Shown: one piece after another, positions 10,807 to 57,678 of the stretch
How the letters are laid out: each line of letters begins with the position of its first letter
Numbering within the stretch: position 1 is the stretch's first letter
From: a virus
Taxonomy: Duplodnaviria > Heunggongvirae > Uroviricota > Caudoviricetes
Length of the DNA: 64,000 bases
Direction: 5' to 3' (one strand)
IMG/VR virus record: IMGVR_UViG_2576861193_000002
The notes under the pieces: model-generated
Told to the model about the DNA's origin: nothing
Seen by the model: only the letters and a program-made list of their open reading frames with translations
Databases searched by the model: none
Position numbers and translations under genes: made by a program

Positions 10807-13800
10807 TTACCAAACACCAATAATAATTTTACCACCACTAGGAAGATTTACCGTAATGCCGTTATTGTTAATAATTACCCGTCCGTCACTATTGCGTACA
10901 TCGAAATTTTGATTGCCTTTAACAATGACGTTACCCCTTACGGTGACTTCGTTGAATTGCGCCCATCCATCTTTGTTAATCATCCAACCTTTTGAGTCTT
11001 GAACAAATACGGTTGACTGGATTTGCTGCGCTATTTTTGCAGTACCGATAGATCCGTCTTTAATAAACGCTTCTTTAACATACATTGCATCATTGGTGGT
11101 ATAGAAAGGTGATGTGTATGTGCCGTTTGCTGCGGTCATCAACACGAAGCGGTCAACGAGGAAAATACACTGCGATTGAACGTTAGTGCCGCTACCAGTC
11201 AGCCCAAGAGACATACCTGTTGCATACTTCATGCCGTTGTTGTCGGTTGCCAGCTTGATAGAGTACGTCGCATCAACATTACCTTTGAAGTCGGTTAACG
11301 CTTTCGACGTCGTCTGTATCGCTGTTGTGTTCCCGTTAACGGTCACTGTTAGCTGATCGATTTTGCTTGATAATGCCTCGTCAGCCGTCGCCATTGCCTG
11401 CGACCATTCTGTAATATTTGAGTTTACAGAATCGAAAGACGCTGAGATCTGGCCAAATTTTTCCGCGCTTGATGCTTCATGCGTAGAAAGTGCCGTTGAC
11501 ACCTCTGATACCTTCGAATTAATCGTACTGGTAAGCGATGAGTTAAGACTACTGATTGCGTCAGTACGGGCCTTCGTTTCGTCTGCAATAGCCTTATCAA
11601 TACGGGTTACGTTACTTGTCACCTTACTATCAAGCGTGGAAATTGATGCGTTCACTCCGCTGATAGCCTGGGCGCGGGCGCTTGATTCGTCGGCAATAGC
11701 CTGATCCAGCCTGCTAACTTCAGATTCAGTGTTGTTTTCAAGCGTGCTAATACTTGCATTCACTCCACTGATAGCTTCAGTTCTTGCGCTTGTCTCATCT
11801 GCAATGGCTTTATCAAGACGGCTTATTCTTGAATCCGTTTTCTTGTCTAGCGCTGACACTGAGGCATTTACTCCGCTGATAGCCTCGCTGCGTGCGCTGG
11901 TTTCGTCTGCAATTGCCCTATCAAGGCGGTTGACGCTTGCTTCCGTCTTCCTATCAAGATCGGTGATCGATGCGTTTACGGAGCTAATGGCTTCCGCTGT
12001 GGCTTTTTTCTCCTCTGCTATAACATTGTCAATACGGTCAATTTGCGCGTTGGTTTCTTTGCGGCCTTTCTTGTATTGGGCCGTGAGAGTAACCCGCGTG
12101 TTGGTTTGAGCAATAGAGTTGTTGATAAGTGCGATTGAGGCGTTTTGCAGACTTGCTTTAGTCTGATTTATTTCGTCGCTGTTTTTGTCAACGTTATTTT
12201 CAACAGTGCCAAGCTCCGCGCTGATGCCCGATATTGCCTGTGCACGGGCGCTTGATTCATCTGCAATTGCCTGATCAAGACGTTTAACGCTGGCGTTTGT
12301 GCTATTTTCAAGCGTTGTTAAATCAGCTTTAACCTCTGTTATTGCGGCGCTTCTTGCCTGCGTTTCATCTGATATTGCTTTATCAAGACGGGAAACGCTC
12401 GCGTCAGTTTTGCTTTCAAGATTGCTTATTGAGGCGTTAACGTCGCTAATGGCCTGGGTGCGGGCACTGGTTTCATCTGCAACCGCTTGATCCAGTCTGC
12501 TTACTTCTGATTCTGTATTGTTTTCAAGTGTGCTAATACTTGCATTCACGCTACTGATAGCGTCTGTGCGTGCTTTTGTTTCGTCTGCTATCGCTTTATC
12601 AATGCGGTTAATGTTGCTTGTAACTTTGCCGTCAAGCGTGGAAATTGAGGTATTCACGCCGCTGATGGCTTCAGTTCTTGCACTGGTTTCATCTGCAATT
12701 GCCTGATCCAAGCGTTTTACGCTGGCGTCAGTTTTCTTGTCTAGCGTTGAAATACTTGCATTTACGTCGCTGATGGCTTGAGTCCGCGCGCTAGTCTCGT
12801 CAGCGATTGCTTGATCAAGGCGGTTAACGCTTGCGTCAGTTTTCTTATCAAGATTGCTTATTGAAGCGTTTACACCGTTAATAGCTTCAGCGCGGGCGCT
12901 GGCCTCGTCAGCTACTGCGCGCTGCACGTTAGAAATCTGACCTTTAAGGTTGGAGTCCATCGTATTCATTTCTGCTGTGATGGTTTCCAGTGATTCCGCT
13001 GTCGCTTTTTTCTCTTCAGCGATAACGTTGTCAATGCGGTCGATTTCCGCTTTAGTCTCTGTCCTGCCTTTCTTGTACTGAGCGGTAAGAGTTACGCGCG
13101 TGTTTGTCTGTGCAAGTGAGTTATTAATAAGAGCAAGTGACGCGTTTTGCAGGCTTGCTTTTGCTTGCGCCAGTTCGCTGCCAACTTTTTCGCTGGACAC
13201 TTCTAATGAGTCAATTCTTGCCTCATGCTGTCCAATATCATCGGCGTTTTCCTCAACCTTTTTATAAAGATCTTCCGTTTCTTTTTTCAGTGTGTCCGTA
13301 TCAGCTTTTATGGCCCCTGTTTCTGTGATTAGGCCGTCCGTATCAATCCTCAAATCGTCAGTGATGTTTGTCAGGTTGTCCGTGTCAACCCTCAAATCGT
13401 CAGTGATGTTTGTCAGGTTATCAGTTGCAGTTTTGAGGTTGTCGGTAGCAGTTTTAAGGTCATTTGTAGCGCTTTCGATAAGATCAGCGCGGTCGCCAAG
13501 ATCTTTAATGTCGCTAATCATCCCCTTAAACTGTTCTGAATTAATTACGTCTTTTGTGACGTAGTCGCTAATTTCATCGAAGTTTTCAGTTGGTTTGCCT
13601 GATGCCTCAACGAAATCTGACACGCCAAAAGCGTTACGTGTACGAATATAAACGTAATAGGTGTGCCCCGTGTTCATGCCGCCAAAAGTCCACTGATAGC
13701 CGCGCCCGGTAAACTGCGCTGATGTGGTTACTTTTGATGGATCTGTGATCTGGTTTTCACCTGCGAAGTAAAATTCGTATGCTGTATCAGTGGTCAGGGT

Positions 13801-15990
13801 TGTTTTGCTAATCGGATACACTGTTGCCTGGAAAACACCAGGAACCCAATTAACGCCGACCGGGGCCGCTGGTGCACCAATAACCAGGTCCACAATACTT
13901 TCCGCACCCTTCATGCCAGTGTCATTACGCCCGCGAATACCAAGCGTGTAGCTGCCAGTATCAAGGCCATAAAACTCATAGCGGTAATTCGTTGTTTCAT
14001 AAGTTGCCACCACGCGGCCTTCGGCGTTATATACGCGTATTTCAAAGGTCAGGCGATGCGTTGTCGTCTGTGTTTCCCATGTAGCGCGACATTGAACAGT
14101 TTCAGAACCAACATTTAACACCTTCAGGTTTTCAATGTTCGGCACGCGGAAGTGATTAAGCGTGTCGTTGTTTACCTCAAAGATTGCGCCTTCATCGACT
14201 ACAGCCTGTTTATGTGGGTCATGCTGTGCTGCCTCGATGGTGTACACGCTGTTGTTTTCAGTTTCTGCTACGCTGATGATTCGGCACAGGACGGGTTTTG
14301 CTGCGTCAGTTGATACAGCAAAAACAGTTCCGTTACGAATCCACGCGGGGGCGGCTGCAAGGGTGATATTGTTTCCGTTAACTCCGGTGATCTGGTGTTT
14401 TTTAAACTTGCCATCACTATCAAGTAAACTAATGGTATCGCCTGCGGCGATGTATTCCGAATCAACCTTATCTACCGTTATCACCTTGCCATTATTCGCC
14501 ACGATACGACCGCCAAAACGAGCGCCTGCGCGGTTATTGTCGAGTATCTCGATAATATCCCCAGGGGTGAAGTGAATTGCGTCGCGGGCCATTTTAAACG
14601 TGAATTTTGATGGTTCGCGTTTTGCTGTTTCTATCAGCCACTTGCCAGCGCGGTATGCCTGCCCGCGTGAAGTGCAACCGAAAGCCTCTAGCGTGGTTTC
14701 GTTATAACCATCGCGGGCGATCAATTCATCATCTGCCACGTATTCTTTTGATTGCTCCCAACCGTTTTCCGGGTCAGTCCATGACACGATAACTGCGTTG
14801 TAAGATTCTGCACGGGCAATACTTGAACGAGTAAACGCGCCATCAACAACGTTAGCATTCGTGATGGTAGCAATTGGATCTTGCGGTGCATCAATCATCA
14901 CCGTAAGGCGCTGCCCATCCCATAACGCGATACCACGGAACATGCCTGCGATATTGTCCAGTAAGTCGCGGGCGCTCATTTGCTCAGTTATGTAAGCATT
15001 AAGCGTCATGCGAGGTTCAAAGCCGCCGTAACCGTCGTTTACCAACTGGTCGCAGTATTGAGAAAGCGTATATAATGCGCCGTCGTCAACATCAATGTAA
15101 CCAGCATGACGTGCAAGCCCGAAACGTTCATTTTTAACCAGATACCGGAATAGCCACGCAGGGTTATTGGTGTACGCTTTTTTAAATCCACCTAGCCATA
15201 AACCTGAATACGTGCGCGTTTCAGGGTTATAGTTGTCAGGCACATCAACAATCAGTCCGCGCAGATGATAGGTGCGGGTAGGTGTATCAGTATACTGGTC
15301 ATGGTCAATTACAGCACCAGCTACAGCGGTATGAGGGTAAGACAGGTTATCGTCGATTATTTCGCTGTAGCTACTCCACCGCGTATCATTACGAAGAAGA
15401 TCGCTTTTGCTGTCTGCTGTTACGCGACGAACGCGAATATCAAACGGCTTTTCATCCGGCGCTTTGATAATGTGAGCTTCCAGATATTCACCGCTTTGTT
15501 TACCGGGACCAATGTGTATACCTTTAACCGGCGACCACGTAGAAGATGATGACGGTTTAACATCAACCACCAACATAACGGATGTATTATATTGATTGCC
15601 CTCATCATCTGACTGAACAAGAGCATCAACGCCAAGATTTAACCTTACGCGGGTAACGTTTGGATCTGAAACAGTCCTTATTATTGGCGTGTCGTGAGTT
15701 ACCTTTGCGTTGACAATAACGGTTGATTCGATGGCATTAAAACCATTAATCGGCGATTGGTCAGCCGTGCCGTTGCGCCAGGCTATACTAATCCCAGGAA
15801 TTGATGTGTTTCCGTTTGCGTCAGTGATAGGCGTGTCATTAAGCATTACGTTGTTTAATGGCGCATTCTGGTTAACTACTCCAAAAATTGGTCCTTCACT
15901 TAGAATATCTAAAACCCGATAAAATTGTTTATGAAACAAATTATCATTAAGCAAAGTTGGTGTTTTTGCTTTACCGCCGCCACTAGACAT
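10807..15990 (-). CDS. central tail fibre / host specificity protein J-like with ~650-aa tandem-repeat coiled-coil insertion
   Basis: 1727 aa; N-terminal ~850 aa resembles lambda J as recalled (YHLRG..V.NYNP.TR.YSG.W.G); aa ~870-1520 are 29-30 aa repeats (SARTQAISDVNASISTLDKKTDASVNRLDQAIADET). Confidence 0.85.
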   Translation of the reverse strand: MSSGGGKAKTPTLLNDNLFHKQFYRVLDILSEGPIFGVVNQNAPLNNVMLNDTPITDANGNTSIPGISIAWRNGTADQSPINGFNAIESTVIVNAKVTHDTPIIRTVSDPNVTRVRLNLGVDALVQSDDEGNQYNTSVMLVVDVKPSSSSTWSPVKGIHIGPGKQSGEYLEAHIIKAPDEKPFDIRVRRVTADSKSDLLRNDTRWSSYSEIIDDNLSYPHTAVAGAVIDHDQYTDTPTRTYHLRGLIVDVPDNYNPETRTYSGLWLGGFKKAYTNNPAWLFRYLVKNERFGLARHAGYIDVDDGALYTLSQYCDQLVNDGYGGFEPRMTLNAYITEQMSARDLLDNIAGMFRGIALWDGQRLTVMIDAPQDPIATITNANVVDGAFTRSSIARAESYNAVIVSWTDPENGWEQSKEYVADDELIARDGYNETTLEAFGCTSRGQAYRAGKWLIETAKREPSKFTFKMARDAIHFTPGDIIEILDNNRAGARFGGRIVANNGKVITVDKVDSEYIAAGDTISLLDSDGKFKKHQITGVNGNNITLAAAPAWIRNGTVFAVSTDAAKPVLCRIISVAETENNSVYTIEAAQHDPHKQAVVDEGAIFEVNNDTLNHFRVPNIENLKVLNVGSETVQCRATWETQTTTHRLTFEIRVYNAEGRVVATYETTNYRYEFYGLDTGSYTLGIRGRNDTGMKGAESIVDLVIGAPAAPVGVNWVPGVFQATVYPISKTTLTTDTAYEFYFAGENQITDPSKVTTSAQFTGRGYQWTFGGMNTGHTYYVYIRTRNAFGVSDFVEASGKPTENFDEISDYVTKDVINSEQFKGMISDIKDLGDRADLIESATNDLKTATDNLKTATDNLTNITDDLRVDTDNLTNITDDLRIDTDGLITETGAIKADTDTLKKETEDLYKKVEENADDIGQHEARIDSLEVSSEKVGSELAQAKASLQNASLALINNSLAQTNTRVTLTAQYKKGRTETKAEIDRIDNVIAEEKKATAESLETITAEMNTMDSNLKGQISNVQRAVADEASARAEAINGVNASISNLDKKTDASVNRLDQAIADETSARTQAISDVNASISTLDKKTDASVKRLDQAIADETSARTEAISGVNTSISTLDGKVTSNINRIDKAIADETKARTDAISSVNASISTLENNTESEVSRLDQAVADETSARTQAISDVNASISNLESKTDASVSRLDKAISDETQARSAAITEVKADLTTLENSTNASVKRLDQAIADESSARAQAISGISAELGTVENNVDKNSDEINQTKASLQNASIALINNSIAQTNTRVTLTAQYKKGRKETNAQIDRIDNVIAEEKKATAEAISSVNASITDLDRKTEASVNRLDRAIADETSARSEAISGVNASVSALDKKTDSRISRLDKAIADETSARTEAISGVNASISTLENNTESEVSRLDQAIADESSARAQAISGVNASISTLDSKVTSNVTRIDKAIADETKARTDAISSLNSSLTSTINSKVSEVSTALSTHEASSAEKFGQISASFDSVNSNITEWSQAMATADEALSSKIDQLTVTVNGNTTAIQTTSKALTDFKGNVDATYSIKLATDNNGMKYATGMSLGLTGSGTNVQSQCIFLVDRFVLMTAANGTYTSPFYTTNDAMYVKEAFIKDGSIGTAKIAQQIQSTVFVQDSKGWMINKDGWAQFNEVTVRGNVIVKGNQNFDVRNSDGRVIINNNGITVNLPSGGKIIIGVW

Positions 15991-16549
15991 ATAGACCCCC
16001 TGTTTCGTGTAATTTCGTGTATCCTGCGCCAGCTTTATTTAGCTCTTCAATCATGAATGACCGCCACGCGACGGCGGCATTAATAGCCATTTCAAGTCCA
16101 CCGCACGCTATAACGCTAAATGATTTACTAACTCTTTTGTCGTTATCAGCGGTGATACGTGCTCTAATAGATCTCCCTTCTGCGTGCCAACATATCCCAA
16201 ATGGCAATCCGCTCTCCCTTGTCGCGCGACCTATGGTCATATTTCTGGCGTTACCTTTTTTATCTGTTACGCGTATGTTATTGAATTTATTATTAAGCCC
16301 ATTACCATCAATGTGATCGATGATCTCACTGCGTTTTAATTTTCTGCCACTGCATAATTCGTAAACAATCCGGTGAGCATAATAGCGACGGCCCTTCCAT
16401 GTGATTTTCCAGTACTTATTGCCGCTTTTTGCCGCTACTATTTTTCCTGCCGCATCGCCAGTCCTCGCCGTTCTGCTGTTAGCGGTGACTTTCCACCTTA
16501 AACATGAAGGAGAATCTTCATCATAAACAAACAATTCAGACCAGTTCAC
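15983..16549 (-). CDS. HNH homing endonuclease with AP2 DNA-binding domain
   Basis: 188 aa; EIIDHIDGNGLNNKFNN HNH motif; inserted between tail genes I and J. Confidence 0.8.
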   Translation of the reverse strand: MNWSELFVYDEDSPSCLRWKVTANSRTARTGDAAGKIVAAKSGNKYWKITWKGRRYYAHRIVYELCSGRKLKRSEIIDHIDGNGLNNKFNNIRVTDKKGNARNMTIGRATRESGLPFGICWHAEGRSIRARITADNDKRVSKSFSVIACGGLEMAINAAVAWRSFMIEELNKAGAGYTKLHETGGLYV

Positions 16550-42003: not shown

Positions 42004-42480
42004 TTACTTCCCGTGATTTGGATGAAAACCATATTTAATTTCAGCTTCTTGTCTCGCTTTGATTGCGTCCTCCATTCTGTCGAATCTGCCTAAACTAATA
42101 CATTTATAATTTACCCAAATTTGCGAATGCCATTTCTTGCGCTCTTTATCCCAATAAACACCAATATAACCACTGGTATTGTTTTTGTTTTTTGGTCTAT
42201 TCTTCGCGTTCTCCTTGCCTAACACCAATCTAAAATTATTAAGCCTGTTATTGCTAGGGTCGTGATCCAAATGGTCTATCTCGTACCCTTCCTGGATCGG
42301 GCCGTTGTGCATTTCCCAAATAATACGGTGAGCTTTATACCATCTACCAAAAAGCCTAACGCGTATGCGACCAGTATCATTTGGACACCCAGCAATACTA
42401 CCGGCTTTCATTCTACCGCGTGACTTTTTCCATATCAGGTTAATACCATCGTAACAAAACCATTCGTGCCAGTTCATCAT
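42004..42480 (-). CDS. HNH homing endonuclease with AP2 domain
   Basis: EIDHLDHDPSNNRLNNFRLV; inserted between ninG and rusA. Confidence 0.8.
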   Translation of the reverse strand: MMNWHEWFCYDGINLIWKKSRGRMKAGSIAGCPNDTGRIRVRLFGRWYKAHRIIWEMHNGPIQEGYEIDHLDHDPSNNRLNNFRLVLGKENAKNRPKNKNNTSGYIGVYWDKERKKWHSQIWVNYKCISLGRFDRMEDAIKARQEAEIKYGFHPNHGK

Positions 42481-42495
42481 GCAATACACCCCCAA

Positions 42496-51117: not shown

Positions 51118-51765
51118 TTATGGCAGGTTTACGATCTTCGCATCCACTACCACGCCTAAGATTTTTGATTCTGGATTCATAGGGATCGGCGGATACAGCG
51201 GATTCAGCGAACGCAAAAGTTTTCTACCTCCATCAATAATCAACTGTTTAAACGTCGGTATCTGCCCTTCCTCCAATTGGGCTATAACCAGTTTTCCGTC
51301 AATAGCTGGCGCGTGCGGATCGACAAGTATCATCGTCCCAGCTGGTATACTCAATCCTTGCGGCGCGTTCATTGATTCGCCTTTAGCTACCAGCCAATAA
51401 CTATCATCTGAACAAATAACGCTAGTAGTAACGTGTGGTAATGTTGATCGCCTTGCATCTTCCATATTGTTTACTACATCCTTCCAGTCAACAACCGGGT
51501 AACTGCCTAAATCACGCGGTGGCGCTCCAGGCAACGTGTTAGAAACAGAATCATCAATGACCATTCCATCATGTGTGACAGTGAACTGCCGACGCCCAAG
51601 CGCCCGCATAATCCGCGCAATGTCTTCAAGATTTGGCTCGCGGCGACCGTTAAGCCAGTGTGACAAGCCGCCTTTTGTGATCCCCATGAGATCTGCCAAT
51701 GAGTCCTGACTCATGCCCTGCGCCCGCATGAGTTGTTTTGCTAAGTCATACCATTTTGTTTTCAT
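51118..51765 (-). CDS. CI-like repressor (HTH + S24 LexA-like autopeptidase)
   Basis: 215 aa; N-terminal HTH; C-terminal S24 domain with GESM and catalytic Lys region. Confidence 0.85.
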   Translation of the reverse strand: MKTKWYDLAKQLMRAQGMSQDSLADLMGITKGGLSHWLNGRREPNLEDIARIMRALGRRQFTVTHDGMVIDDSVSNTLPGAPPRDLGSYPVVDWKDVVNNMEDARRSTLPHVTTSVICSDDSYWLVAKGESMNAPQGLSIPAGTMILVDPHAPAIDGKLVIAQLEEGQIPTFKQLIIDGGRKLLRSLNPLYPPIPMNPESKILGVVVDAKIVNLP

Positions 51766-51834
51766 GTCGCTACCCTATAATCTAAAAAATTTTGATGCAA
51801 GTCACAAAATGTAATTTTCAATCCTTGACCTGTT

Positions 51835-51862
51835 AACGCCATTCTGTAAACTTGCAGACAAG
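51835..51862 (+). promoter_or_regulatory. PR-like promoter divergent from repressor gene
   Basis: TTGACC-16 bp-TAAACT; overlaps GCCATTCTGTAAAC operator-like motif. Confidence 0.3.
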
Positions 51863-51930
51863 GTAAGTCCATAGTTGCAATGATGCAAGGAAAAAGATAA
51901 GGGAAAGCACAAAAGGCACATACCTTAAAA

Positions 51931-51963
51931 GCTCTTTAAAAATCCGGTGTCGCTGCGAAGCGA
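51931..51963 (+). promoter_or_regulatory. candidate nutR (boxA-like + GNRA hairpin)
   Basis: GCTCTTTAAAAAT then UCGCU-GCGA-AGCGA stem-loop; parallels candidate nutL. Confidence 0.3.
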
Positions 51964-52071
51964 AAAACAAATATCACGCAACGGCGGGATCTGTTCAGCG
52001 GTCAGTCACTGCTATCTAATGCTAATTGGATACCCGCCAGCGCGTTCACTCTAACCATAGGAGAAAGAAAC

Positions 52072-52317
52072 ATGTATTACGTTCGCAAGGCTTTTGATAT
52101 TCGCCTGAATAACAATGATCATGTGCAAAAACTCATCTTAATTGCACTGGCAACAAAGGCCGGATGCAACGGCAAAAGCGAAGTAACGCCGGAAGAAATC
52201 GCTGAAATGTGCGAAATTCCGTTACGTGACACTATCTCTGCACTGCATCAACTGAAAAGAAGCGGCCTAATCAGTCAGCTGCCAGGTTTCTTCTGTGTTT
52301 ATAAGTTAATGTTTTAG
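52072..52317 (+). CDS. winged-helix DNA-binding protein (early regulator)
   Basis: 81 aa; AGGAGA RBS; first gene of rightward operon. Confidence 0.5.
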   Translation: MYYVRKAFDIRLNNNDHVQKLILIALATKAGCNGKSEVTPEEIAEMCEIPLRDTISALHQLKRSGLISQLPGFFCVYKLMF

Positions 52318-52323
52318 TTCGTC

Positions 52324-53325
52324 ATGAGGTTAATGCTTATGAGTATGCGGCTAATGGTAGAAGTCTTCCATACTGAGGTCGGCAACCCAATGCACAAACT
52401 GGTGCTGTTAAAGTTGGCTGATAACGCTAACGATAACGGAGAGTGTTACCCTTCTTACCAGCACATAGCGAAGCAATGCGAAATAAACAAAAGCACGGCA
52501 ATGAGAGCAATCGAGGCTCTTTGCAAAAAAGGTTTGTTACTAAAACAGCCTCGATATTTAATCGGAGGGAAAGAACAAACGAGCAATTTCTATGTAATCG
52601 TTTTACCTTCACTGTCAGGTAGTGGCACAAAGCAACCGGGGGTAGTGGCAGAGAGCAACCAGGGTAGTGGCACAAAGCAACCGGGGGTAGTGGCAGAGAG
52701 CAACCCTAATCAGTCATATATAACCAGTAAAGAGAACATTAAAGATATACCCCCTTGTATCCCCCCAGAAGAAAAACATGTCAATCAGGATGGCGTAAAC
52801 GAAGCGGCATTGCGTTGCCTTGCCTTCTACAACGACAAGGCAGGATGCAAATATCGTGATGCAAAACCATTCATCGAACTACTGACAGAAACAAAAACAC
52901 GTAAAGCGTATACGGAGGATGAGATCACATTAGTGATTGAGTGGGCTTTAACTCAATGGCGTAACCGTGGTGGAACACCTAAGCCTATCAACATTTGCAG
53001 GGTAACTAAGTTTGATGGGTATCTTGCTGATGCTGAACAATGGCGCAAGCTGTCAGCCACTGCAAACGCTGCCGACGTAGTGGAAGCATTTAACAGCACG
53101 TTTGATGGCCTGTTGCCACCTACTGAACTGGATCGGGATCTTGAACGAAAGATCTATGCGTTCACTGACTACCTGAAAGACAAAAGCATTAACGGCTTTG
53201 TCGCCTACTTCGAAACGTTCAAAAACACGGCTTCAGATTTTTACTTAGGCAATGGCTTTACTGCGACACTTGATTTCCTGCTTAAACCAAAAACGCTACG
53301 TGATACACGCGCTGGCGCTCTTTGA
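52324..53325 (+). CDS. replication initiator O-like protein
   Basis: 333 aa; N-terminal winged-helix; internal linker encoded by iteron repeats. Confidence 0.6.
   Translation: MRLMLMSMRLMVEVFHTEVGNPMHKLVLLKLADNANDNGECYPSYQHIAKQCEINKSTAMRAIEALCKKGLLLKQPRYLIGGKEQTSNFYVIVLPSLSGSGTKQPGVVAESNQGSGTKQPGVVAESNPNQSYITSKENIKDIPPCIPPEEKHVNQDGVNEAALRCLAFYNDKAGCKYRDAKPFIELLTETKTRKAYTEDEITLVIEWALTQWRNRGGTPKPINICRVTKFDGYLADAEQWRKLSATANAADVVEAFNSTFDGLLPPTELDRDLERKIYAFTDYLKDKSINGFVAYFETFKNTASDFYLGNGFTATLDFLLKPKTLRDTRAGAL
52619..52705. repeat. four ~19-bp iterons inside O-like gene (candidate origin)
   Basis: GTAGTGGCA(CAA/GAG)AGCAACC four times at 22-23 bp spacing; coordinates approximate. Confidence 0.5.
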
Positions 53326-53457
53326 CCAACCACGATCCGAAAAAACCCAAAATAACACGCAAAACAAGCTCGCTAGCGAGATAAATCGCATGTAGTGCTA
53401 CACTTGCATGCCTTTTGCGATTAGCTCGTTAGAGAGCGTTTTAGAGAGGATTTCAAA

Positions 53458-53559
53458 ATGGACGGTAAACGCGTTTTCGCCCTGGCTTTTGCCATCGCCG
53501 CTGCAATAGCTGTTAACGTCGCCTTGTTCGGCGGTTTGTTCCTTCTCGTTAATCCATAA
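53458..53559 (+). CDS. small hydrophobic peptide (33 aa)
   Basis: GAGAGG RBS; MDGKRVFALAFAIAAAIAVNVALFGGLFLLVNP; below ORF cutoff. Confidence 0.25.
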   Translation: MDGKRVFALAFAIAAAIAVNVALFGGLFLLVNP

Positions 53560-53678
53560 CCTACCTACCAGTCTGTAAATCAAAAATTAGCCACCTGAGA
53601 GCGTCTATAACGCAATAAGACACTGCAACCTGTGCAAACTGGTTACGCGGTGGGATTTTTGCGTTGTAGAGCGTTTTA

Positions 53679-55760
53679 TTGATTGTATATATGCAAAAGC
53701 AAATTACTAAATACGAGGTATTAATGATGTCTAGATATTTTGTATCGATAAGAGGAAGTAAATTTTTTGCAAAAATTGATGAAGGAATGGTGTTTATGCG
53801 GAAGCGTAAATATCAAACGTGGGATCGTTGTGGTAAAAAAAGCGAGTTTGTACGCGCGGTGGCCGGTGGCTATTGGAAGGAAATAACAGCGGCGGAAGCT
53901 GGCGATTTTAAGTACGCTGATTGCAGCCAGTGCGCGGAGAACTGGCCTGAATTATTTGATTATCATCCTGATGGGTATCTGATTAGCAAGGTTAAGCGGG
54001 GTACGGGAAAGAGTTTAATTAAACCTGGCGGTATAATTCGCGGAACAGTAAGTTCTCAGGGAAATTTATATATTGGTATAAATGGTCATTATTATCAATT
54101 ATCTCGCGTAGTATATGAAATGTTTAACGGCCCTATTCCTGATGGTTACGTGATAAAGAATGATAATAAGTCATGCACAAAAATAGAAAACCTGAAATTA
54201 ATATCACGGAACGGAAAAATAACAAAGCATAATGTTATTGGTAAAAGCGGAATCAGAGGTGTTTATTGGAATAAGAAAAATAATAAATGGATGGCAAATG
54301 TTAGTTACGATTATTTAGGTTGTTTCGATAATATCAACGACGCAATAAACGCGTGTATCATGGGTGAAATTAAACGTTACGGCAGGCAAATGAACCACTT
54401 CCCTGATTATATCTCACCAGAGGAAGAGGAGCGCATTAAACAGCGTTATTATGAAGGTGACGAAATGAAACAGATCAAAATTAACACTAAACCTCCTGAA
54501 CCTGAATTTAAATACAACACATTCAGGTTTAAAAAGCGCGATATTAGAATCAACGGAAACAATTATATAAGCCTGGTAGATCTATTCCGGGCGATGGGTG
54601 GAAGTAGTAGCGAGCAGTTCAGGCAGCAGATCGACAAATTCGAAGATGTTCCGGTGTTTGATTATTTCCTTAACCGTGGCGAGGACTACGAAGACGAATA
54701 CTTTGCACCTCCGTTAATGGCGCAAATGTTCGTACAGCGGTTGGGCAACGCTTGCGACGGCGTGGAACTGCTTAACACTTACATTGCATATTGCAACGTC
54801 ATGGCGGCAGCAGATGACCAGGCTGATAGCGGGCAGGTGGAAGACCTGAAAGGCCAAGTGAAAGCGGCTTGCGGCAAGATCAAGGAACTGGAACAGGAGA
54901 ACAGGGAAAAACAATCGACTATCGATCAAATCACTCGAGATAAAGCGCAAGCAACGTTGTACGACCTCAATAGCTATTACCGAAAATATATCGACGAGTG
55001 CGCTGAACGCATGAGGGTTGAACATCAACGCGACAACATGGAGGGGCAGATCAGCGAATTGCAGGGACTGCTTAACGTGGCAAGAGAGGATCGCAATAAC
55101 TATCAAGATCGGGCGAACTACTGGAACCATCAATATAACCAGGCAAATAAAGCATTTGGGGAGGAACAGGATAAACGCCAGAAATTAGAAAGAGAAAACG
55201 ACAACCTGGTAAAAACTAATTGCGAACTACGCCAAAAACTCAACGCTGCAAATGACGAAGACGCAAAAGCGAAAGCTGCGGCAGACAAACAAACAATCAA
55301 CGACCTTCGCGCAGATCTGGAGGAAGCAAAAGAAACAATCAATGCGCAACAACAGGAGGCACGCAACAAGGCTCTGGCTATCAAGGGATATCAGCTTAAA
55401 GTGGCAGAACTTGAGGACGATAAACGGGAACTGCAAAACAATCTGAATATCTTGCAAACTGGTCATAATATCCTGCTGGATCGCTACAACAAGCTAACTG
55501 CTCGCAACATGCGCCGCCGCGCAGCACAAAAACGGTATATGGGTGATCTGCACAATAACCACGTAACTGATACGCTTGAGTGGATGCAGGCAATAAAAGG
55601 TGCTGGCGACTATTACAAACAACGCCAACAGCGCAACCAGGAGCGTTATCGTAAGCTGATAATGGCATTGCAAGACAAAGTAAAAGAATTGCTGTACCGC
55701 CTCGATAAAAAGCCAGAAGGCGGATTCTTTAGCAAGGTTAAAGGTTTATTTAACCATTGA
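53679..55760 (+). CDS. multidomain protein: degenerate HNH-AP2 module + KilA-N/Bro-N-like domain + ~300-aa coiled coil
   Basis: 693 aa; AP2-like SGIRGVYWNKKNNKWMANVSY; HNH His positions replaced; FRFKKRDIRINGNNYISLVDLFRAMGG; heptad-rich C-terminus; start uncertain. Confidence 0.55.
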   Translation: MIVYMQKQITKYEVLMMSRYFVSIRGSKFFAKIDEGMVFMRKRKYQTWDRCGKKSEFVRAVAGGYWKEITAAEAGDFKYADCSQCAENWPELFDYHPDGYLISKVKRGTGKSLIKPGGIIRGTVSSQGNLYIGINGHYYQLSRVVYEMFNGPIPDGYVIKNDNKSCTKIENLKLISRNGKITKHNVIGKSGIRGVYWNKKNNKWMANVSYDYLGCFDNINDAINACIMGEIKRYGRQMNHFPDYISPEEEERIKQRYYEGDEMKQIKINTKPPEPEFKYNTFRFKKRDIRINGNNYISLVDLFRAMGGSSSEQFRQQIDKFEDVPVFDYFLNRGEDYEDEYFAPPLMAQMFVQRLGNACDGVELLNTYIAYCNVMAAADDQADSGQVEDLKGQVKAACGKIKELEQENREKQSTIDQITRDKAQATLYDLNSYYRKYIDECAERMRVEHQRDNMEGQISELQGLLNVAREDRNNYQDRANYWNHQYNQANKAFGEEQDKRQKLERENDNLVKTNCELRQKLNAANDEDAKAKAAADKQTINDLRADLEEAKETINAQQQEARNKALAIKGYQLKVAELEDDKRELQNNLNILQTGHNILLDRYNKLTARNMRRRAAQKRYMGDLHNNHVTDTLEWMQAIKGAGDYYKQRQQRNQERYRKLIMALQDKVKELLYRLDKKPEGGFFSKVKGLFNH

Positions 55761-55841
55761 AGCCGTATAACCACGCAATTTATGTCGTCGTGGCGTCAAT
55801 TTCCTGAATGAATATACATTCAGTAAACCGGAGAATATACA

Positions 55842-56525
55842 ATGAGTGACTTAATGGTTTTTGATGCTGTTAAGATGAATAGTCTTGAAATTGCAGAATT
55901 AACGGGAAGTGATCACAAGGATATTAAACGGAGTATTTACAGACTGATTAAGAAGGGAATAATTCAAAATTCGCCAATGGCGAAAGTTGAGAATAAACAA
56001 TCACTTAGCCCTAATAGATTTTCTGATGTTTACGTCTTTGAGGGCGAGCAAGGAAAACGAGATAGTATCATTGTCGTTGCTCAAAACTGCCCTGAATTTA
56101 CGGCGCGGCTTGTTGATCGCTGGCAGGAACTTGAAAAACGGGTACAGCAAAACTCTCCTGCAATTCCTCAAACATTAAGCGAAGCGTTGCGCCTTGCTGC
56201 CGATCTTGCTGAGGAAAAGGAACGGCTTGCGCTGGTTAATAAGGAACTTGCGCCAAAAGCGGCTGTATGTGACGCGATAGTCAAAAACGATATGCACCGC
56301 ACGGCTTCAGAGGTAGCTAAACCGCTGGGAATGTCAGCCGTAAAATTAAACAGAAAACTTTCGGCTGTTGGTGTTTACGATCTTCGCTGTCGCCGCCGTG
56401 TATTCAGTCAGTGGTTTATTGATGAGGGGTACGGTGAAATGAGGGTAACTCACGATGGATATGAGCAGGCTGTATTCACTGCTAAAGGACAAGTATGGAT
56501 CACTGAGCTTTTAACTTGTAACTAA
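55842..56525 (+). CDS. antirepressor-like protein (Rha/Ant N-terminal + KilAC-like C-terminal)
   Basis: 227 aa; domain architecture typical of phage antirepressors. Confidence 0.6.
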   Translation: MSDLMVFDAVKMNSLEIAELTGSDHKDIKRSIYRLIKKGIIQNSPMAKVENKQSLSPNRFSDVYVFEGEQGKRDSIIVVAQNCPEFTARLVDRWQELEKRVQQNSPAIPQTLSEALRLAADLAEEKERLALVNKELAPKAAVCDAIVKNDMHRTASEVAKPLGMSAVKLNRKLSAVGVYDLRCRRRVFSQWFIDEGYGEMRVTHDGYEQAVFTAKGQVWITELLTCN

Positions 56526-56559
56526 GTATACAATTTGTTATTCGCGAGGAAATGACACT

Positions 56560-57678
56560 ATGTCACAAAGAAAGATCAGCGATGAACAGCTAATCGCTGA
56601 ATATAACAACGGTTTAACGTACAAGCAGATCGCTGAAAAATATGGCATGTCAAAACGCAACGTCGAACGCCTGGGCGCAAAACTGGCGAAACGCGGTTTA
56701 TTATCAACGCGCCGCGCTCCTGGTTTTGGTGTCAATGGCGAGTCGTTGCTAGTCGATAAGAACGGCAATGTGATCATGCGTTGGATTAAAACAGCCCGTG
56801 ACCGCGACGAAATGGAACAGTTAATGGAAGCGGCCCGCGACGCTTTCACGGATGAAATACCACGCGCGGAGGCTGTGCCAGTGCCTGAAATTGATTTTCA
56901 AAAAAGCCTGGCCCTTTATCCGGTGTTTGATCTGCATATCGGGGCTCTTGCCCATAAAGCTGAATGCGGTGAGAGCTACGACACTGGGATCGCTGAACGC
57001 GTGCTAAATAACTTCTTTGATTATGCTGTTGGCGCTGCTCCTATGAGTGAAAAAGCAGTCTTACTTCTCGGTGGCGACCTGCTTCACACTGACGGATTGT
57101 TACCAGTGACGCCATCAAGCAATCACGTTCTTGATTGCGATTCGCGCTACGCAAAACTTGTTTATGTGGCGATCCGGTCTGTCCGGCGGGCGGTCGGAAA
57201 GATGTTGCTAAATCATAAGGATGTGGAAATCCAGGTGTTATCAGGGAATCATGACCAGTCTGGTATGATTTGGCTACGTGCGGCGCTGGCGGCTTTTTAC
57301 GAAGATGAACCGCGCGTGACGGTTGATGTGTCACCTGCTATTGTCCACCACACACAGTACGGCAAAACATTCCTTGCTTACCACCACGGGCACACTATCA
57401 AAAAGCCGGAAAATTTATTGTCTGCTTGCGTCTCTGACTGGCGGGAAGACTTTGGCAAGTCTGCTGCGGTTTACGCTCATTGCGGGCACTGGCACCATCA
57501 ACGGCTAATCGAATCATCGTTAGGCGTTGTTGAGTATCACGGCACGTTAGCGGGTAAAGACGCTTACTCAACTAATGGCGGCTGGCGGTCGCGGCGTCTG
57601 GCAGCGGTTATTATTTACAGCCAGGATCATGGGGAGATCGGGCGCTTTGTTTATTACCCTGAATTTTCCATTTTGTAA
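56560..57678 (+). CDS. calcineurin-like metallophosphoesterase with N-terminal HTH
   Basis: 372 aa; FDLHIG, GGDLLHTD, GNHD, GHWHH motifs; N-terminal LTYKQIAEKYGMSKRNVERL. Confidence 0.55.
   Translation: MSQRKISDEQLIAEYNNGLTYKQIAEKYGMSKRNVERLGAKLAKRGLLSTRRAPGFGVNGESLLVDKNGNVIMRWIKTARDRDEMEQLMEAARDAFTDEIPRAEAVPVPEIDFQKSLALYPVFDLHIGALAHKAECGESYDTGIAERVLNNFFDYAVGAAPMSEKAVLLLGGDLLHTDGLLPVTPSSNHVLDCDSRYAKLVYVAIRSVRRAVGKMLLNHKDVEIQVLSGNHDQSGMIWLRAALAAFYEDEPRVTVDVSPAIVHHTQYGKTFLAYHHGHTIKKPENLLSACVSDWREDFGKSAAVYAHCGHWHHQRLIESSLGVVEYHGTLAGKDAYSTNGGWRSRRLAAVIIYSQDHGEIGRFVYYPEFSIL

Follow-up and report, generated by a model that had tools for sequence, protein, structure and literature searches.

A catalytically degenerate HNH-AP2 module fused to a KilA-N-like fold and a coiled coil, encoded by an optional insertion in Escherichia coli prophages

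Introduction

What remains of a homing endonuclease once the residues with which it cuts have gone, and what might a prophage use the remainder for? The question is raised by a gene in the IMG/VR virus record IMGVR_UViG_2576861193_000002, of which we analysed a stretch of 64,000 nucleotides (the window), an E. coli-type prophage integrated beside dgcM. The gene lies within the plus-strand open reading frame (ORF) 53679..55760, which the initial annotation had described as a domesticated endonuclease remnant: a degenerate HNH-AP2 module joined to a KilA-N/Bro-N-like region and a long coiled coil. Databases label the product, here called the fusion protein, 'HNH endonuclease' or 'hypothetical'; the activity label is probably wrong, and two thirds of the protein are unannotated. 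The reading that we favour, with modest confidence, is that it is a domesticated homing-endonuclease derivative that binds DNA in a multivalent and site-specific manner without cleaving it.

Results

An HNH-AP2 body without its catalytic residues

Residues 70-225 of the fusion protein, numbered here and below in the 678-aa form, are a module of the I-HmuI type in which an HNH_3 domain is followed by an AP2 domain. The HNH_3-type part (aa 70-165, 53931..54218, plus strand) matches its Pfam profile above the gathering score (E 1.2e-9) and has the beta-beta-alpha-metal fold of I-HmuI-type enzymes. In the AP2-type DNA-binding domain (aa 172-222, 54237..54389, plus strand) the Pfam match (PF00847) is partial, at 19.9 bits against a gathering score of 33.3. 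The same profile was found at E<=0.1 in 21 of the 29 members of the family alignment, with a best E of 1.7e-6; this alignment comprises the window protein and 28 homologues aligned end to end. The AP2 signature residues are invariant across it, and the domain folds as a three-stranded sheet packed on a helix. Among the PHROGs, residues 27-292 of the ORF match phrog_99, 'HNH endonuclease', with an E of 6e-34.

The initial annotation had likened the N-terminal ~200 residues to three HNH-AP2 genes of the same prophage, and pairwise comparison detected this homology. The window holds three intact HNH_3 paralogues, all on the minus strand (42004..42495, 36642..37163 and 15983..16549), with Pfam HNH_3 E-values of 2.4e-18, 5.2e-14 and 1.6e-9; the nearest of them, 42004..42495, is 37% identical to the fusion protein (tblastn E 6.5e-18; phmmer 2e-20). 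Pfam finds AP2 in just one of the three paralogues, that at 42004.

Free-standing phage homing endonucleases of this type (PF13392 plus PF00847; phrog_99) have the catalytic histidine and both asparagines, whereas the fusion protein family has lost all three. The paralogues and the enzyme of the Klebsiella phage JKT1 read I-D-H-[LI]-D-x-x-x-x-[ND]-N-x-x-x-N-[LFI]-R ... [KA]-[ED]-N. When aligned with them, the degenerate motif of the window protein (VIKNDNKSCTKIENLKLIS, aa 143-161, 54150..54206, plus strand) reads V-I-K-N-D-N-K-S-C-T-K-I-E-N-L-K-L-I-S-R-N-G-K, aligned as VIK--NDNKSCTKIENLKL, and the family consensus is IENADDSCAKIENLKLIS, that is, I-E-N-A-D-D-S-C-A-K-I-E-N-L-K-L-I-S-R-S-E-R. 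Opposite the IDH[LI]D of the paralogues, with its general-base histidine, all family members have I[EKIN]--N.D; the NN/DN with the structural asparagine aligns with C[AT]/SC; and the [KA][ED]N with the metal-binding asparagine aligns with SER in the consensus or, in the window protein, with a two-residue gap before an asparagine. The HNH histidines had already been noted as replaced; the general-base histidine is indeed deleted or replaced, and the loss extends to both asparagines. Because it is shared by the window protein and 28 of 28 aligned full-length homologues, it arose before the family diversified.

Purifying selection nevertheless acts on the dead HNH region. Against four homologous genes (Nei-Gojobori) the overall dN/dS was 0.22-0.37 at a dS of 0.65-1.05, and every domain with an estimable dS had a dN/dS below 0.55: the ratio was 0.26-0.38 in the dead HNH, 0.32-0.40 in AP2 and 0.05-0.10 in the middle domain when genes with one and the same variant of it were compared. 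With catalytic residues lost family-wide and the dead domain still constrained, the description of the gene as a domesticated endonuclease remnant is well founded. Segment-wise dS runs from 0 to saturation within single pairs, and the gene is therefore a recombinational mosaic.

Canonical HNH_3-AP2 enzymes terminate at ...YGFHxNHG, which maps to aa ~225 of the window protein; the latter thus consists of a whole HNH-AP2 body extended by 69 aa at its N-terminus and 450 aa at its C-terminus, sequence that the canonical enzymes do not have. The N-terminal extension (aa 1-69, 53724..53930, plus strand) is family-specific and comprises a small beta-rich domain followed by an invariant YADCSQCAE motif; its profile had no significant match among PDB sequences, and when the N-terminal 262 aa were used as query only truncated family members were returned. 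At the canonical end begins a conserved acidic linker (aa 226-262, 54399..54509, plus strand), whose sequence FPDYISPEE.ERIKQRYYEG.EMKQI.I.T is almost invariant in the family alignment.

Four residues of the N-terminal part, C67, C70, H81 and C151 (in a YADCSQCAENW...H...SC motif), are invariant in the family and have no counterpart in the canonical HNH_3 paralogues; a structural metal site built from them is conceivable, in a part where the structure model is of low confidence (pLDDT <50 at aa 63-70).

A middle domain with a KilA-N/APSES fold, and a coiled-coil C-terminal half

After the linker comes a domain with the KilA-N/APSES fold (aa 263-365, 54510..54818, plus strand). The named top matches among predicted viral structures (BFVD) were KilA-N proteins, and Bro-N proteins appeared only at E 0.4-0.6. 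The search with profile HMMs by which a KilA-N/Bro-N region was to be checked came back empty: neither KilA-N (PF04383) nor Bro-N (PF02498) was found by Pfam in any of the 29 family members at E<=0.1, and in the window protein KilA-N was absent even at E<=1. The KilA-N identity is therefore held at the level of the fold only, and of the initial assignment to a KilA-N/Bro-N-like region it is the KilA-N half that survives, in this restricted sense. Homology of the APSES and KilA-N domains has reportedly been proposed. Compared with the known domains (the N-terminus of P1 KilA; fungal Mbp1/Swi4), the middle domain has no HMM-level similarity and no sequence relatives beyond its family, and it is internal where that of P1 KilA is N-terminal. 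An exhaustive HMMER search with the mid-domain profile against 1.84 billion representatives returned only the family and two repetitive proteins, which we judged spurious, and the same profile had no significant match among PDB sequences. Within the family the domain exists as two alleles, 26-31% identical to each other and 78-95% identical within each, inside otherwise similar genes; together with the mosaic structure, this suggests that it is a specificity module.

The initial annotation had predicted ~300 aa of heptad-rich coiled coil. By heptad periodicity and composition, both judged from sequence, ~220 residues (aa 366-582, 54819..55469, plus strand) are heptad-regular coiled coil, whose length varies by indels among the homologues; the last ~95 aa of the predicted stretch are instead a conserved basic region. 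Proline is absent between aa 361 and 663, and the EKRQDN content of aa 366-655 is 55%. Between aa 366 and 655 the heptad a/d occupancy exceeded the 95% null in 40% of 28-aa windows, against 10-14% elsewhere, with an unbroken register within each of the stretches aa 408-505 and 506-589. Residues 367-662 resembled the coiled-coil arms of proteins such as SMC, JetC and LmuB only in weak, sub-threshold profile matches, at 10-22 bits against cut-offs of 350-1087. Pfam detected no ATPase family, and hence none of the head domains of an SMC, Rad50 or JetC ATPase, in the protein, so the likeness to these proteins is compositional only. Searches of aa 248-678 against Pfam, NCBIfam, PADLOC and PHROGs found nothing beyond coiled-coil noise.

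The C-terminal helical region (aa 583-660, 55470..55703, plus strand) is dense in invariant columns and carries the motifs RYNKL.AR..RRAAQKRYM and RYRKLI.ALQDKVKELLYRL. The last ~95 aa (583-678) as a whole are basic, more conserved than any other part of the protein, and have the lowest dN/dS of the gene (0.11-0.17). No relative of this region was found in the PDB or the PHROGs, and the C-terminal 307 aa used as query returned only truncated family members. The protein ends in the tail DKKPEGGFFSKVKGLFNH (55704..55757, plus strand), in which a helix breaker precedes a short basic amphipathic segment (KKPEGG-FFSKVKGLFNH; family pattern KKPE.G[FL][FW]SK[VI]K..F.H). Its hydrophobic moment of 0.42-0.46 and hydrophobicity (H) of 0.17-0.25 compare with 0.45 and 0.04 in the same calculation for the membrane-targeting sequence of MinD; this is suggestive only, and we take membrane binding by the tail as a lead and not as a finding.

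The gene is carried by an optional insertion

The fusion gene lies in an early rightward arm, where a CI-like repressor on the minus strand is followed, rightward, by genes for a Cro-like protein and an O-like initiator, a 33-aa ORF, the fusion gene, Rha/Ant, an exonuclease with a helix-turn-helix (HTH) domain (phrog_704), DnaB and NinB. The initial annotation had placed the gene in the early rightward operon. Its position bears this out; it is an optional insertion, though, and not a fixed member of that operon. The insertion (2150 bp, 53679..55828, plus strand) is absent from the related prophages L007, L011 and L012. In all three, homology to the window ends at 53678, with identical left junctions, and in L007 and L011 it restarts at 55829. 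The empty site reads ...GTAGAGCGTTTTA/CGGAGAAAATACAATG, where the slash marks the junction, 15 nt upstream of the Rha/Ant start. These three prophages, from complete E. coli genomes, share the Rha/Ant-exonuclease-DnaB module and are otherwise syntenic with the window. Clean presence or absence at one exact position, against a syntenic background, is the polymorphism looked for in a free-standing homing endonuclease gene.

At the same position, a homologue was found in six other loci (L001, L002, L003, L008, L010 and L014), behind three different types of initiator. The ORF also occurs alone in a second, unrelated prophage backbone, beside eutB and downstream of an integrase, where nucleotide identity is 72-74% and the flanks are not shared. 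A crude scan showed no consensus promoter or terminator in or beside the insertion, and its expression is thus most simply explained by read-through from the early rightward promoter.

The family is rare. Its homologues fall into 48 clusters of 43-100% identity, nearly all of 598-688 aa, and the clusters that come with a source name are all labelled E. coli. The gene had no megablast or blastn match in 50,697 phage records or in 5,426 complete E. coli genomes from RefSeq, and pattern and tblastn scans of the GTDB species representatives and IMG/VR gave none that was confirmed. Against phages, tblastn matched the HNH-AP2 part only, at 30-38% identity; an apparently extended alignment with phage ZH5 (query aa 78-429) is artefactual and passes out of a 153-aa endonuclease gene into the capsid gene.

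One continuous gene with a probable product of 678 aa

Counted from the TTG at 53679 the ORF is 693 aa long, as the initial annotation had it, and it is present as described; the TTG is most likely not the true start, which we place 15 codons further in, at the tandem ATGs 53724 and 53727. A GAGG Shine-Dalgarno (SD) sequence at 53715-53718 precedes them (SD and starts together, 53715..53729, plus strand), with a duplex energy of -7.2 kcal/mol that is comparable with those of neighbouring genes, and in the alignment the homologues begin with M[AS]RYF and have invariant positions within the first 24 residues. On these grounds the product has 678 (or 677) aa, and the coding sequence, with its TGA stop, is one continuous gene at 53724..55760 (plus strand). 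The suspicion that the ORF might be two adjacent genes was not borne out: it is single and uninterrupted, and homologues in nearly all of the 48 clusters are of full length. An internal start at Met248, suggested by the conserved GAAGGTGA, was considered and found no support; its SD energy is only -4.4 kcal/mol, ninth by SD strength of the 34 in-frame start codons.

What the fusion protein may do

Under the reading that we favour, an I-HmuI-type HNH_3-AP2 enzyme would have lost its general-base histidine and both asparagines before the family diversified, and would have retained its scaffold for DNA recognition. This body would then have been fused to the N-terminal domain, the KilA-N/APSES fold, the coiled coil of ~220 residues and the basic C-terminus with its amphipathic tail. 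The coiled coil would make the protein at least dimeric and would in this way present several DNA-binding modules together, namely the dead HNH-AP2 and probably the KilA-N domain. Specific DNA sites might be occupied or bridged uncut, with the protein acting as a roadblock, a regulator or a DNA organiser, and the C-terminal region could dock to a partner or to the membrane. The regulatory or structural role proposed in the initial annotation is likewise putative. Most likely the gene is expressed as part of the early rightward (PR-type) transcript of the prophage, so that the protein probably acts after induction or infection and outside the core replication machinery.

Several points weigh against this account. 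DNA binding, oligomerisation, time of expression and biological role are all predicted from the sequence, which may also be compatible with non-canonical catalysis. The structure model of the N-terminal part is only of moderate quality (pLDDT 70, pTM 0.40), the promoter and terminator scan was a crude consensus scan whose counts are at chance level, and the hydrophobic moment of the tail is unexceptional, ranking near the 75th percentile for this protein.

There are precedents for nuclease-derived modules that bind without cutting. CapR, of the Vibrio cholerae satellite PLE, is a DNA-binding repressor derived from a homing endonuclease, site-specific and non-cleaving (PMC8096241), and the CasPR anti-CRISPR silencers, with CapR and AP2 domains, likewise bind specific DNA sites without cleaving them (bioRxiv 10.64898/2026.02.23.707548). 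The likeness is a functional analogy drawn from these papers. With CapR it is one of concept, a mobile element reusing a nuclease-free recognition module, and we claim no kinship in sequence: CapR belongs to the T5orf172/GIY-YIG lineage and has a small Zn-finger-like domain, whereas the fusion protein derives from an HNH_3-AP2 source, retains the dead nuclease and has gained KilA-N and coiled coil. CasPR is prophage-encoded, as the fusion protein is, and has an AP2 of the kind found in HNH homing endonucleases; it comes, however, from Bacillota, has CapR domains and lacks HNH, KilA-N and coiled coil, all three of which the fusion protein has. By this analogy the fusion protein would share the idea, not the architecture, of CapR and CasPR.

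If it does bind DNA uncut, it would add E. coli prophages, as an independent case, to the examples of site-specific binders built on the recognition modules of homing endonucleases. The combination of a dead HNH_3-AP2, a KilA-N fold and a coiled coil is new, and a single optional gene with natural empty-site controls in a well-studied host makes its role tractable.

Alternative explanations

A narrower version of the favoured account, and one compatible with it, sees the gene as an accessory weapon used in conflicts between phages or between phage and host, be it for superinfection exclusion, anti-defence or defence. The dead endonuclease module would recognise and block a site in a host gene or in a competing phage, such as the un-invaded allele upstream of Rha/Ant. 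The single-gene optional insertion in two unrelated backbones fits this, as do the strong mosaicism and the divergent KilA-N alleles in otherwise similar genes, which are typical of specificity-determining modules, a prophage lineage rich in free-standing HNH genes, and CapR and CasPR as precedents. We nonetheless think it rather unlikely: PADLOC 2.0 recognised no defence system, giving only a weak 'HEase' (homing endonuclease) match at E 7e-4 and JetC/LmuB coiled-coil noise, the gene, with no promoter or terminator of its own in the crude scan, is probably silent in the lysogen, and the target site is only postulated. A bolder form of the idea, which we offer as a speculation with a small chance of being right, would have the dead HNH-AP2 act as a site blocker on the site at which its ancestor homed (the un-invaded junction that sibling prophages have upstream of Rha/Ant) or on another conflict-relevant locus; the exchangeable KilA-N allele would add a second specificity, the dimeric coiled coil with its membrane- or partner-binding tail would clamp or sequester the DNA, and competitors that lack the insertion would be silenced or excluded. 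If true, E. coli prophages would have put a selfish-element nuclease to a new use within a new architecture, in parallel with CapR and CasPR but with an independent origin.

We hold it quite improbable that the protein serves instead as a DNA-membrane tether or replication organiser, its N-terminal modules binding phage DNA and its coiled coil and amphipathic helix anchoring it at the inner membrane or a host structure. The main context of the gene, between the O-like initiator and the exonuclease and DnaB genes, would suit such a role, and so would a C-terminus that is the most constrained part of the protein and a tail that, after the KKPEGG break, resembles the MinD targeting sequence in moment and hydrophobicity. 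Yet the gene is dispensable, three related prophages having the same replication genes without it, the second backbone places it outside any replication module, downstream of the integrase, and the metrics of the tail are not distinctive. An active homing endonuclease with a non-canonical active site, the polymorphism being the trace of ongoing homing, would account for the precise intergenic presence/absence, as free-standing homing endonuclease genes produce it, and for the conserved HNH scaffold, and a new metal site could be made up by the invariant C67, C70, H81 and C151. We consider it very unlikely, given that the general-base histidine and both asparagines are missing in every member, that selection constrains the 450-aa non-nuclease extension more tightly than the HNH part, and that the flanks were not co-transferred to the second backbone. 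That the ORF is a decaying remnant, or two adjacent or fused genes without function as one protein, is the view to which we give hardly any credence. Truncated copies do exist (P0046, P0048, P0052-P0056), and gene callers at times start at an internal Met (P0001, P0052), but the ORF is uninterrupted in nearly all of the 48 clusters, every domain has a dN/dS well under 1 at a dS of ~1, and the SD at Met248 is weak.

Junctions, neighbouring genes and other HNH genes

The ends of the insertion were also inspected. An imperfect 28-nt direct repeat occurs at 53416-53443 and 53651-53678, each copy ending in (T)AGAGCGTTTTA and lying just before an SD/start, and the second copy exactly abuts the insertion junction. 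The terminal inverted repeats amount to a 7-mer only, which we judged to be due to chance. The 10-mer junction motif GAGCGTTTTA has 10 matches in the window against 5.5 expected, a count reached in 4 of 100 shuffles; the motif was picked post hoc, and the excess is nominal only. At the 3' end of the insertion there is a palindrome, CTGAATG-AATATA-CATTCAG (55804-55823), and also a stretch that matches the Rha/Ant start region at 13/15 positions (GAATATACATTCAGT at 55810-55824 vs GAATATACAATGAGT at 55833-55847); this may be a remnant of an earlier junction. Rfam had no match in 51700-56600.

Between the initiator gene and the insertion, at 53458-53559 on the plus strand, lies the ORF of 33 aa, very hydrophobic (MDGKRVFALAFAIAAAIAVNVALFGGLFLLVNP) and preceded by a GAGAGG SD. 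All related prophages, whether they carry the insertion or not, have it intact and at 85-97% identity (L001-L003, L007, L008 and L010). It has no Pfam or PHROG match and could encode a small membrane peptide or a toxin. The initiator position itself (52324-53325 in the window, plus strand) is occupied by an HTH_36 O-like protein, a Lin1244_N protein or a 211-aa protein among the window and the otherwise syntenic L002, L003, L007, L010 and L008; this is module swapping at a fixed position. On the other side of the insertion, the exonuclease gene (56560-57678, plus strand, 372 aa) encodes an N-terminal HTH and the metallophosphoesterase-like motifs GGDLLHTD, GNHD and GHWHH. Its product matches phrog_704, 'DNA repair exonuclease', at E 5e-139, received no Pfam domain call, and is kept between Rha/Ant and DnaB in all relatives.

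Elsewhere in the lineage there are small intact HNH_3 genes at varying positions (L008 12808-13266, L014 13789-14247 and L011 534-1001), a scatter that suggests active endonuclease traffic in these prophages. In the leftward late arm of the window, a 1727-aa ORF (10807-15990, minus strand) lies directly downstream of the HNH gene 15983-16549 and overlaps it by 8 nt.

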